Positions 37,629 through 40,080 of a stretch of DNA of 64,000 bases are shown one piece after another (positions within the stretch are counted from its first letter, which is position 1; every line of letters starts with the position of its first letter). The notes under the pieces were generated by a model that searched no databases, had not been told where the DNA came from, and was given only the letters and a program-made list of their open reading frames with translations. This DNA is from Clostridia bacterium (lineage in GTDB: Bacteria; Bacillota; Clostridia; TANB77; CAG-508): NCBI GenBank assembly GCA_022790575.1, contig JAAVXM010000034.1, positions 9,467 to 73,466 of the forward strand, in the 5' to 3' direction. The position numbers and the translations under genes are program-made.

Positions 37629-38483
37629 ATGGAAAATGCAACAAAAGCTTTGCTAATAGCAGCAGGTATGTTACTAGCAGTTATGATATTGTCAATAGCA
37701 GCTATTACATATAAACAAGTATCAAGTTATTATAGTGAAAAGCAAGACATTATATTTGAAGAACAAGCTGGAAAGTTTAATAAAAGATTTGAGGACTACA
37801 ATAGGGAAAGAATAAGAGGAAGTGACATTGTTTCACTAGTAAATATGGTAATTGATTATAATACAAATGAGAGTTTTGAAACAGGAACAAATTATAAAAG
37901 AATAAAGTTAGAAATAAATATGATAAATAATAGTTCTGTAATGAATCAATTTAGATTTATTACAAGTCAAAATAGTGCATCAGATTATGGTATACCATCA
38001 TATAAATCAATTCTTCCAGATAATAATAAAATTTCTAATGCAGGAGCTACTAATACTGTAACTGGTGACCAGTTATCATTAAAAACACTAACAAATCAAA
38101 TAAACAAAATGATTGCTGATAATAGTAGTTTAGGATTTTCAGATTCAACATTACAAAGATTATCAACAAACATATCAAATATAGTATTATTAAGTGAAAT
38201 AGAAAATAGAGTTGAAGGGGATACAGCTACTGACTATGAAAAAAGTCAAATAACCAAAAGAACACAGTTAATAAAGAATATACTTAAATTAAAAGATAAC
38301 CAAATAAATACTGCTAATATGGTAAAAATAAAAACAGCAACATGTCAATATTATGAATTTACACAATTCAAGAGAGCGTATTTTGACTGTGAAGAAATAA
38401 AATATGATGAAGAAACAGGAAGAGTCTGTGAAATGAAATTTAAAGTTAGACTAAATAGTAATGGAACAGTAGAATTTAATTAA
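37629..38483 (+). CDS. Pilin-like subunit paralog 1 (MENATKALLIAAG N-terminus)
   Basis: N-terminus MENATKALLIAAGMLLAVMILSIAAITY, then EEQAGKFNKRFEDYNRERIRGSDIVSLVNMVIDYN, and a C-terminus FDCEEIKYDEETGRVCEMKFKV. Confidence 0.6.
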   Translation: MENATKALLIAAGMLLAVMILSIAAITYKQVSSYYSEKQDIIFEEQAGKFNKRFEDYNRERIRGSDIVSLVNMVIDYNTNESFETGTNYKRIKLEINMINNSSVMNQFRFITSQNSASDYGIPSYKSILPDNNKISNAGATNTVTGDQLSLKTLTNQINKMIADNSSLGFSDSTLQRLSTNISNIVLLSEIENRVEGDTATDYEKSQITKRTQLIKNILKLKDNQINTANMVKIKTATCQYYEFTQFKRAYFDCEEIKYDEETGRVCEMKFKVRLNSNGTVEFN

Positions 38484-38558
38484 AACATATAAGTAGGTTT
38501 ATAGGTACATCCTTTGAAAAAATAAAAAAACCTAAATACATTATATAAAGGAATATAA

Positions 38559-39113
38559 ATGGAAAATGCAACCAAAGCTTTATTAATTGCTGCTGGAGTG
38601 TTAATGGGAATATTAATTCTTTCATTAGGTGTATTTTTATATCGTTCTTTAAGTGGATATGTTGAAACAGTACAGGAGGATATGGAAGAAAATGCATTAA
38701 TTAAATTTAATAATCAGTTTCTTAAATATGTTAATGTACCATTAGATTCAAATGGAAATCCTCTAAAAGATACAAATGGTAATATAAAAACAGATTTTGA
38801 TATAACAATACAAGATGTTGTTACAGTTGCAAATATTGCATATGAAAATAATAAAGATGATATTTTAAGTGGTAGCATTAATGCAAATACTGATTACACT
38901 GAAAGGAATTCATATGTTACAGTAAATATAAAATATAATGGAAATATTAAAATAGACCATATTGAAAACAATATAAACAGTACAGATATTTCAAATCCAA
39001 ATAAGCCTTCAGCTTCATATTTGTTGACAAATGATAAAGGATATAAGTACAAGTGTTATAAAATAAAAATTAGCCCAGAAACAGGGAGAATATATGAAAT
39101 AAATTTTGAATAG
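38559..39113 (+). CDS. Pilin-like subunit paralog 2 (MENATKALLIAAG N-terminus)
   Basis: N-terminus MENATKALLIAAGVLMGILILSLGVFLY, then ENALIKFNNQFLKY...ITIQDVVTVANIAYENN, and a C-terminus YKCYKIKISPETGRIYEINFE. Confidence 0.6.
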   Translation: MENATKALLIAAGVLMGILILSLGVFLYRSLSGYVETVQEDMEENALIKFNNQFLKYVNVPLDSNGNPLKDTNGNIKTDFDITIQDVVTVANIAYENNKDDILSGSINANTDYTERNSYVTVNIKYNGNIKIDHIENNINSTDISNPNKPSASYLLTNDKGYKYKCYKIKISPETGRIYEINFE

Positions 39114-39156
39114 CACTTGAGTAATGAAAATTATAATGATATAATGAGGATATAAT

Positions 39157-39579
39157 ATGAAAAAAATGATTATCTTTTTAATATTAGTTATTGCAATAAT
39201 CTGTTTTATAGGATTTAAATACTATTCATATCAAATAGATTATACAACAATACTTGCTGAAAATGAGGAATATGAAAAATATAAGGAAAAAGAGGTATAT
39301 GGACTAGACTTAACAACACTTATAAATAGAGCAATTGATGCAAACATAAAAAATAAGGTTGAAAAAGATGGACAAGGCTTTTATATTAATAACAATAAAG
39401 ATTCTATTGAAATAGAGATATATATGAAAGATAATGAAACAACATATAAGATAGAAACATTTTATAACAGTATAGAAGGCTTTATAGAAAATTATAAGGA
39501 TATAAAGTTTAAATGTACAAAAATAGAGTATCACAAGGATACAAATAAAATCAAATACATGTTATTTGAACAATTATAA
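39157..39579 (+). CDS. Pilin-like subunit paralog 3 (different N-terminus, same core)
   Basis: N-terminus MKKMIIFLILVIAIICFIGF, then AENEEYEKYKEKEVYGLDLTTLINRAIDAN, and a C-terminus FKCTKIEYHKDTNKIKYMLFEQL. Confidence 0.55.
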   Translation: MKKMIIFLILVIAIICFIGFKYYSYQIDYTTILAENEEYEKYKEKEVYGLDLTTLINRAIDANIKNKVEKDGQGFYINNNKDSIEIEIYMKDNETTYKIETFYNSIEGFIENYKDIKFKCTKIEYHKDTNKIKYMLFEQL

Positions 39580-39594
39580 AATAGTTTATAAAAT

Positions 39595-39613
39595 TCGATA
39601 ATTTGGTTATCGA
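39595..39613 (+). other. Perfect 7-bp intra-operon hairpin before the candidate major subunit gene
   Basis: TCGATAA tttgg TTATCGA, located 35 nt before the ATG at 39649. No T-run follows. Confidence 0.4.
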
Positions 39614-39648
39614 GCATAATATACAAAAGTTAAAAAGGAGGGAGATTT

Positions 39649-40080
39649 ATGGAGAACGCAACCAAGGCATTGTTAATTGCTGCGGCAGTTTTAGTAGCAA
39701 TATTAATTATTTCTTTAGGTCTAGTTGTTTATAACATGGCAGCTGAAACTATGGGTAATGTTAACTTAAGTGAAGCAGAAATCCAACAATTTAATGATAA
39801 ATTTACAAGATATGAGGGAACATCTCAATCAGGTACACAAGTTAATGCTATGTTAAATACAGTTTTCACACATAATATGTCAGAAACAGATGAAGGAAGA
39901 AAAGTTACAGTAGTAGAAGGAGCTGCCAGTGGAACAGGAACAGATGTATTAACTGGAGATGAAACTACTAAACCAAAAAAAGTAGACACAGGTAGAAGAT
40001 ATACAGTTGTAGCAGAATATGATAATCAATCAAAATTAATAAATAAGATTACATTTACTGAAAATAGTTCTACACCATAA
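39649..40080 (+). CDS. Pilin-like subunit paralog 4, candidate major subunit
   Basis: N-terminus MENATKALLIAAAVLVAILIISLGLVVY, then EAEIQQFNDKFTRYEGTSQSGTQVNAMLNTVFTHN, and a C-terminus RRYTVVAEYDNQSKLINKITFTEN. It is the smallest MEN-type paralog (143 aa) and has the longest RBS in the operon (AAAAGGAGGGAG). Confidence 0.55.
   Translation: MENATKALLIAAAVLVAILIISLGLVVYNMAAETMGNVNLSEAEIQQFNDKFTRYEGTSQSGTQVNAMLNTVFTHNMSETDEGRKVTVVEGAASGTGTDVLTGDETTKPKKVDTGRRYTVVAEYDNQSKLINKITFTENSSTP

Follow-up and report, generated by a model that had tools for sequence, protein, structure and literature searches.

The stretch of DNA analyzed here (hereafter, the window) comprises 64,000 nucleotides from a Clostridia bacterium of the TANB77 lineage (assembly GCA_022790575.1, contig JAAVXM010000034.1, positions 9,467 to 73,466 of the forward strand); coordinates are counted from its first letter, and its G+C content is ~27%. 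Eleven plus-strand genes form one tight array from 30648 to 41316, with spoIVB as the next gene. The first five encode a putative Tad-like pilus machine and the last six, F1 to F6, encode small proteins anchored by an N-terminal helix. The locus and the label "pilin-like" for these proteins are already published, and the system as such is not new. What is new is that four of the proteins (F1 to F4) constitute one head-domain family, that five (all but F3) begin invariantly with Met-Glu-Asn, or with an acid at position 2-3, and lack a canonical leader, and that a very large family (>5,600 clusters at 50% identity) is accompanied neither by a pilin signature nor by a peptidase encoded in the cluster.

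Results

The MEN proteins and their N-termini

F1 (37629-38483, +; 284 residues, beginning MENATKALLIAAG), F2 (38559-39113, +; 184 residues) and F4 (39649-40080, +; 143 residues) are pilin-like proteins that start with Met-Glu-Asn (MEN) directly at a hydrophobic helix, F4 being the smallest MEN-type open reading frame (ORF) and the candidate major subunit. F5 (40112-40699, +; 195 residues; MENVTEALKMAFG) has only the MEN-type N-terminal helix in common with them, and F6 (40747-41316, +; 189 residues; MEDTSISIIG...) is an N-terminally anchored protein of a different family. Between F2 and F4 lies F3 (39157-39579, +; 140 residues), the counterpart of a protein for which a signal peptide has been published (protein 934; Kim et al., Nat Commun 2024; PMC11680825). 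An initial annotation of the window had proposed a leaderless paralogous family, and this description fits F1, F2, F4 and F5, which do start with MEN, but not F3, which carries an ordinary MKK signal anchor.

The first 12 residues of F1, F2 and F4 are identical (MENATKALLIAA), one more than first annotated, and F5 begins MENVTEALKMAF. Pairwise, 6, 9, and 6 of the 12 codons for these residues differ, all synonymously, and the N-terminus is therefore conserved at the level of the protein, as had been claimed. Since in-frame stop codons lie 3, 3, 12, 18, 24, and 18 nucleotides upstream of the ATGs of F1 to F6, respectively, a longer N-terminus is impossible. Shine-Dalgarno motifs of the GGAGG type precede F1, F4, and F5, the best of them being that of F4 (AAAGGAGGG).

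A genome scan with the ATPase of the cluster returned at least 555 related stretches, and 80 loci, totaling 1.6 Mb, were retained; all are uncultured Clostridia or Clostridium-labelled records, whose sources include human, chicken, rabbit, and rumen samples. The order CpaB-ParA-ParA-ATPase-platform-F1-F2-F3-F4-F5-F6 is conserved in the 80 loci, with one to three copies of F4 per locus and F4 duplicated in many genomes. In these loci 273 ORFs start with MEN, and M1, E2, N3, A4, A7, and L8 are nearly invariant across the four families F1, F2, F4, and F5. The start MENA.KAL was found in 91 of 91 F4 sequences and M(E/D)N in 83 of the 84 F1 ORFs of the loci and window, the exception being a truncated ORF that starts MGN-, while all 289 homologues of F2 start ME(N/D)A. 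Among 373 relatives fetched from the database, all have ME- (one LE-) directly at the helix, and 365 have MENA or MEDA. Variation in N-terminal length is almost nil, unlike that of real leaders, and the rare apparent extensions are artefacts of ORF calling through the Shine-Dalgarno region (e.g., MKEGET-MENATKAL).

Other positions of the N-terminus are more variable. Position 6 is predominantly Lys in F1, F2, and F4, is Glu or Asp in most F5 orthologues, and can be Gln, Asn, or Arg elsewhere. Small residues occupy positions 22 and 24 in F2, F4, and F5; in F4 these are Ser, Ala, Gly, or Thr at 22 and, in 89 of 91 sequences, Gly at 24. F1 has Leu, Val, or Phe at 24. The F6 orthologues start MGD, MSD, or ME(D/E) and have a conserved Pro22 and a DR.DD motif. 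Under the methionine-aminopeptidase rule, the second residue of the mature protein would be acidic in ~62 of 68 of them.

Homology and conservation of the head domains

The four-protein relationship had been proposed from a motif following the helix and a second motif at the C-terminus, and profile comparison bore it out. With the first 30 residues removed, the profiles of F1, F2, F3, and F4 match one another in hhalign with probabilities of 93-99% (E 2.5e-7 to 4e-18). F3, despite its different anchor, matches the F1 and F2 heads at ~99% (E ~1e-16 to 4e-18) and the F4 head at 93%. In the family alignments the motifs read E..FN..F..Y ... (D/Q)(V/I)..(L/V).N.(V/A)...N after the helix and (F/Y).C..I.....TGR(V/I).E(I/M).F at the C-terminus; in the F2 family F50, N51, Q53, F54, Y57, D86, N92, N97, N98, Y164, C166, T175, R177, V178, and F183 are invariant or nearly so. 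The alignment of F5 with F1, F2, and F4 is limited to the first 35-46 residues (~97%), and no relation of F6 to F1-F5 was detectable among the family profiles.

The database holds 289 homologues of F2 and 1081 of F4, none with any Pfam domain, and F2 itself has an identical entry, annotated as hypothetical, in a "Clostridia bacterium" metagenome-assembled genome. A search with the combined F1, F2, and F4 profile gathered 5,607 clusters at 50% identity (E<=1e-3), and the best 150 of these align from residue 1 (one from residue 3). Mean pairwise identity within F1, F2, F4, and F5 is 0.68-0.90 over residues 1-12 and 0.25-0.31 over the heads, the gradient being steepest in F4 (0.90 versus 0.27). 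F3 shows the reverse (0.48/0.29 at the N-terminus versus 0.44-0.48 in the head). Over the loci, identity is 0.80 for the ATPase and 0.68 for the platform candidate, and the heads evolve faster than all components of the machine. The combination of a highly conserved helix tip and a rapidly diverging, exposed head is classically associated with pilins.

Predicted structures

Architecture was judged from the order of secondary-structure elements in AlphaFold2 models. The F2 model, built from the family alignment, has a helix at residues 2-55, a second at 84-103, and four strands (predicted local distance difference test, pLDDT, 87.4; predicted template-modelling score 0.71). In the F4 model (pLDDT 83.9), helices at 2-36 and 42-53 lead into a strand, a third helix at 62-78, and four more strands. 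A first helix predicted to extend to residue 53-55, followed by an alpha/beta head, suggests the lollipop outline of pilins.

Scans of the six window proteins against Pfam and NCBIfam found no pilin family, with no N_methyl match at E<=1 and no TadE or Tad match (PF07811, PF13400) at the same threshold. There was also no Pfam match to the archaeal-type Class_IIIsignal or Pilin_N families, and none to Flp_Fap (PF04964); the proteins have 135-300 residues with structured heads and lack the EY motif. The resemblance to Flp, which had been considered weak from the outset, is indeed so.

The upstream genes

The array opens with the gene of a CpaB/RcpC-like bitopic protein (30648-31913, +), which matches TIGR03177 pilus_cpaB weakly (E 2.8e-5, below cutoff), keeps its position in the 80 loci, and corresponds to protein 927 of Kim et al. 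Two ParA/MinD-like proteins follow. The first, TadZ-like (31950-32633, +), has the size and position of protein 928 of Kim et al., for which structural homology to TadZ was reported (PMC11680825); it matches AAA_31 faintly and is syntenic in 79 loci. The second, CpaE-like (32646-33515, +), gives weak eps_fam/MinD matches, corresponds to protein 929, and is also syntenic. The fourth gene encodes a TadA/CpaF-like secretion ATPase (33520-35505, +; T2SSE, E 3.3e-5; TIGR03819 TadA family, E 1.5e-8) whose nearest solved relative, by sequence search of the PDB, is CpaF (E 3.1e-10) and which is nearer to CpaF than to ComGA (NCBIfam E 1.5e-8 versus 3.9e-4). Its N-terminal transmembrane (TM) helix, MSIFN.LLIIVIFV...YYINKNKNAEV (33520-33600), is conserved in the loci, and the protein is ~660 residues long; such a helix is unusual for the CpaF/TadA ATPase family, which is normally soluble. 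The fifth gene (35529-37613, +) encodes a polytopic membrane protein of 694 residues with at least six hydrophobic segments, the presumed platform, described by Kim et al. on structural homology as a TadC-TadB fusion (PMC11680825). On sequence, the signals from these five genes point weakly but coherently to a Tad-type machine. A dedicated CpaF-family ATPase and a polytopic platform candidate are encoded beside the putative subunit genes, the arrangement looked for in a type IV filament system. A scan for promoters and terminators was uninformative in this AT-rich DNA (105 sites versus 100 expected).

The downstream end of the cluster

Most loci encode, after F6, a protein of 540-900 residues (e.g., 17247-18863 of locus L015) that starts MK(I/L)Q.LAVIFIIIILPISL, has P16, and is equivalent to protein 938 in Kim et al. 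Its N-terminus has no acid, and the L015 protein has no TadE or Tad match at E<=0.1. Some loci instead encode a polytopic protein of ~590 residues (MSIIYIF...) after F6. In the window, the 938-like protein is absent from the corresponding interval (41317-41470), and F6 is followed by spoIVB (41471-42721, +), which encodes a Peptidase_S55 protein (E 6.5e-81) with a PDZ domain. As in the window, the cluster is directly followed by a SpoIVB-type S55 serine peptidase in most of the 80 loci. We considered a functional link of this enzyme to the pilin-like proteins, but an extracytoplasmic enzyme would be unable to trim an N-terminus in the cytoplasm, and the adjacency is probably synteny within one order.

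Peptidase and canonical prepilin-type genes

The GxGDxK motif of aspartyl peptidases, searched for as a regular expression, identified no peptidase in any ORF of the window (64 kb) or in the 1.6 Mb of the 80 loci. The one match to the expression was in an ORF that precedes the ATPase gene and does not encode a peptidase. This absence is established for the cluster neighborhood only. Elsewhere in the window, 52594-53955 (+) encodes a 453-residue protein with a canonical prepilin-type N-terminus, MGISEKVKQQG/ITLIALVVTIIILLILAG (the slash denoting the cleavage site), an N_methyl match below cutoff (E 0.002), and a Big_2 domain (E 6e-9). The gene is an orphan, flanked by clpX and a kinase-like gene. 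From its sequence, the genome evidently uses classical class III signals also. Similar canonical prepilin-type genes occur in loci L004 (19348-20490) and L025 (2681-3547), and in L037 a gene for a 152-residue protein with a canonical-looking leader, MKKEEG/ITLIILTVTIIIMLILA (15174-15632), is inserted between F2 and F3. The L037 protein has no Pfam match and no similarity to the MEN families, and none of the canonical prepilin-type proteins resembles the MEN families of its own genome.

Other features of the window

Upstream of the array, ~14000-29200 (+) is a polysaccharide/capsule region, assigned by eye, with glycosyltransferase-like genes and a 453-residue flippase-like protein. It includes a possible surface protein (24734-25267), a sortase-like gene (25251-25880, +), a Wzz-like and tyrosine-kinase-like pair (26753-28440, +), and a CpsB-like phosphatase (28443-29153), these also assigned by eye. 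In many loci, synteny with the pilus cluster extends to the last two genes of the region. Downstream of spoIVB lie a 105-residue zinc-ribbon-like protein (42781-43098, -) and two small paralogues of 117 and 161 residues (43301-43654 and 43778-44263, +) that end ...GLYV(K/R)EV...IRI(L/R) and have no Pfam match. SpoVT is encoded at 10539-11093 (-; SpoVT_C, E 3.5e-49); its presence alongside spoIVB suggests that sporulation genes are retained in this uncultured lineage of reduced genome.

Discussion

Relation to the published cluster

Kim et al. described a "pilus gene cluster exclusively conserved in TANB77" (PMC11680825). The entries of their Table 1 are CpaB (358 residues), TadZ (231), CpaE (280), TadA with one TM helix (640), and the TadC-TadB fusion (693), then proteins with one TM helix of 165, 170, 143 (signal peptide), 146, 237, and 178 residues, and finally protein 938 (621 residues). 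The eleven proteins of the window have 421, 227, 289, 661, 694, 284, 184, 140, 143, 195, and 189 residues. Gene order, protein sizes, and predicted TM helices agree between the two, the third small protein has a signal peptide in both, and the hosts are low-GC, uncultured gut Clostridia. Judged by these features, the window cluster is a member of the TANB77 pilus cluster; it differs in that the clade of the window lacks protein 938 and has spoIVB directly after F6. For proteins 932-937 the sequence and structure searches of Kim et al. were empty, and the pilin-like label was drawn from context, separate promoters, and topology, while for protein 938, which was tested in mice in the immunotherapy experiments, only partial structural similarity to TadE/TadF was reported (PMC11680825). 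Nowhere does their text use the words peptidase, leader, cleav-, or TadV, and it contains no analysis of the N-termini and reports no shared head domain. A second paper, on complete metagenome-assembled genomes from HiFi reads (PMC9606305), has nothing on pili or peptidases.

A model for the MEN proteins

Cleavage of the leader by a dedicated aspartyl peptidase is regarded as one of four universal features of type IV filaments (PMC10191384). Against this background, we judge it about an even call that F1, F2, F4, F5, and probably F6 are Tad-like filament subunits made without a canonical class III leader and left unprocessed. That they are not processed is argued from several observations. M-E-N-A is invariant and of fixed length across paralogues that are otherwise ~25% identical; an acidic residue lies within what would be the leader; the chemistry of position 6 is variable, unlike that of a cleavage site dependent on Lys or Arg; the acid is present in all subunits except the large 938-like protein; and the cluster encodes no peptidase. 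The 938-like protein resembles in this respect the tip-capping minor pilin of a type IV filament review, which lacks Glu5.

Under this model the subunits would insert N-in/C-out by way of hydrophobic residues 7-28, and the ATPase/platform motor would pull them out of the membrane; packing of the N-terminal helices would build the filament, and the fast-evolving heads would point to the outside. The polypeptide would begin M-E-N-A at the tip of the helix. Glu2 blocks methionine aminopeptidase, and Met1 would for this reason be retained. We infer that the invariant Glu2 may assume the charge-neutralizing and docking role that Glu5 has in processed pilins, and no prepilin peptidase step would be needed. 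F4 would be the likeliest major subunit in view of its small size, the smallest of the set, its ribosome-binding site, the best of them, its duplication in many genomes, and its conservation gradient, which is the steepest; the others may be minor or tip subunits. F3 is a head-domain paralogue in which an ordinary signal anchor has taken the place of the pilin helix. The most far-reaching form of this idea, a peptidase-independent type IV filament whose subunits are synthesized "mature", with Met1 and Glu2 replacing the processed N-terminus and Glu5, we put forward tentatively, at somewhat less than even likelihood.

A number of results weigh against this model. The outline of the predicted structures, the conserved N-terminus, and the Tad-type context agree with the initial proposal of pilin-like subunits, but no match of fold or sequence to pilin, archaellin, or Flp was obtained. 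Foldseek against the PDB gave best E values of 0.11 for F2 (ribosomal L25) and 0.13 for F4 (PhzA/B, NTF2-like), and against BFVD of 0.09, so that the structural comparison with pilin folds that had been recommended returned none (best E 0.09-0.13), nor any archaellin or Flp. The top matches (ribosomal L25, PhzA/B, and phage ORFs) are noise, none reaching E<=0.001. Profile searches of PDB sequences returned nothing relevant for the MEN families, and 82 F4 members showed no pilin family in Pfam, N_methyl included, at E<=10; sub-threshold matches to DUF4179 (55 of 82, best E 9e-5) and T2SSM were attributed to the TM helix and dismissed. The platform candidate has no Pfam, NCBIfam, or PDB sequence match, and comparison of its N-terminal and C-terminal halves by hhalign, on a shallow alignment, revealed no internal repeat; the TadC-TadB fusion thus lacks sequence confirmation here, and the identity of the platform rests on the published structural comparison. 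A few F6 orthologues start MND, MQD, or MNE and have no acid at position 2. The peptidase, rightly said to be missing from the window, and missing from the 80 loci also, is probably encoded elsewhere in the genome, because canonical prepilin-type genes occur in the window (52594-53955) and in related loci. Moreover, M-E-N-A-x-K-A followed by ~21 hydrophobic residues has the format of a short class III signal. Finally, no filament has been seen, and the organism is uncultured.

Alternative explanations

The last points lead to the main alternative, namely that these are ordinary Tad-like prepilins with a fixed seven-residue class III leader, M-E-N-A-x-(K/E)-A, cut between Ala7 and Leu8 by a peptidase encoded elsewhere. 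We consider this rather unlikely, although several observations speak for it. According to the type IV filament review, leaders are hydrophilic or neutral, end in Gly or Ala, and are followed by 20-25 hydrophobic residues, and the MEN proteins fit this format. The absence of a positively charged leader and of Gly at -1, noted in the initial annotation, is literally correct for the primary product; even so, Lys6-Ala7 before Leu8 can be read as positions -2 and -1 of a minimal class III site, with Ala7 and Leu8 nearly invariant and Lys6 dominant in F1, F2, and F4. The Neisseria pilin N-terminus, MNTLQKG/FTLIE, has the same length and -2/-1 logic. Tad systems reportedly originated from pili of the archaeal type, in which Ala is often the last residue of the signal, and a mature pilin starting LLIAAG... 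would, like many archaeal pilins, lack Glu5; the only invariant acid is Glu2 of the primary product, and Glu5 of a mature protein is found in neither reading. The canonical prepilin-type proteins (KQQG/ITLIALV... in the window, and those of L004, L025, and L037) imply a peptidase that could do the cutting. On the other hand, M1, E2, N3, and A4 are invariant in four families and thousands of clusters with practically no variation in length, which is atypical of leaders, as is an invariant acidic residue inside one. A leader of this kind would have Glu or Asp at -2 in F5, and Gln or Asn there in some members, and F6 and the 938-like proteins have no matching site, Ile occupying position 7 in 7 of 38 sequences. 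Tad loci normally carry tadV/cpaA, whereas none of the 80 loci has a peptidase gene in or near the cluster, and bacterial PilD-type enzymes strongly prefer Gly at -1.

Two further explanations would dispense with a filament of these proteins. They could be non-polymerizing bitopic membrane proteins, either accessory or alignment parts of the machine or helix-anchored surface proteins, with the helix as a docking site for the platform. Heads unlike any known pilin head, the sub-threshold resemblance to bitopic families (DUF4179, T2SSM), a paralogue (F3) that works with an ordinary anchor, and the lack of an assignment by Kim et al. are all compatible with such a role. We nevertheless find it improbable, as five to seven tandem paralogues after an ATPase and a platform are arranged as in the pilin arrays comGC-GG and gspG-K, extreme conservation of the N-terminus next to rapidly evolving heads is typical of pilins, many genomes have duplicated F4, and the machine would be left without a subunit, there being no Flp-like gene in the cluster. 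Alternatively, the N-terminal helix could be a Sec signal peptide, cut by signal peptidase I after Ser22-x-Gly24 to release soluble heads, since the small residues at 22 and 24 in F2, F4, and F5 resemble the -3/-1 rule. However, the hydrophobic span is ~22 residues long and the predicted helix continues confidently to residue 36-55, position 24 of F1 is Leu, Val, or Phe, and conservation, which is poor in signal peptides, is highest at residues 1-12 in these proteins, the signal-anchor protein F3 showing the opposite. DeepTMHMM in Kim et al. likewise gave TM helices, with a signal peptide for protein 934 only (PMC11680825), and we regard the Sec explanation as highly improbable.

Comparison with other type IV filaments

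The model of unprocessed subunits sets the MEN proteins beside several known systems. With Tad/Flp pili the cluster has in common the CpaF-like ATPase, the CpaB-like and ParA-like proteins, the clustered operon, and a platform that is TadB/C-like according to Kim et al. It differs in that the MEN subunits have 135-300 residues and globular heads, unlike Flp of 40-60 residues, and no G/xxxxEY motif; in that the TANB77 cluster has no tadV; in the N-terminal TM helix of the ATPase; and in the single, putatively fused platform protein. Type IVa (T4a) pilins and type II secretion pseudopilins (IPR012902; N_methyl, PF07963) share with the MEN proteins an alpha-1 of ~53 residues with a hydrophobic N-terminal half, a helix plus beta-sheet head, a conserved N-terminus with a variable head, an invariant N-terminal acid, and a prefix of seven residues, the length of the T4a leader. 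The MEN proteins, however, lack Gly at -1 and F/M-T-L-I-E, have the acid at primary position 2 rather than processed position 5, and give no N_methyl match, whereas the protein at 52594-53955 does. The Com pilus operon of monoderm Bacillota (comGA-comGG) resembles the TANB77 cluster in its order of ATPase, platform, and then about five pilin genes, but the ComG pilins, unlike the MEN proteins, have the canonical leader KG/FTLxE and need ComC. Archaeal pilins and archaellins, the substrates of PibD, FlaK, and EppA, may have short leaders ending in Ala or Ser and often no Glu5, and Tad reportedly derives from them; here, by contrast, the host is bacterial, there is no peptidase gene nearby, and the putative leader contains an invariant Glu.

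Significance

The MEN family is present in most TANB77 gut species. If its members are truly unprocessed, they would amount to a natural experiment on the purpose of leaders and on the part played by Glu5 and the free N-terminus in docking, and if the peptidase-free reading is true, they would be the first counter-example to the universality of class III leader cleavage in type IV filament assembly. If they are instead short-leader prepilins, the finding would shrink to an unusual but ordinary Tad variant. The abundance of the TANB77 cluster tracks the response to checkpoint immunotherapy, and one of its proteins has been used as an immunostimulant (PMC11680825); the mature N-terminus and the identity of the major subunit affect both the design of such antigens and the interpretation of results obtained with them.

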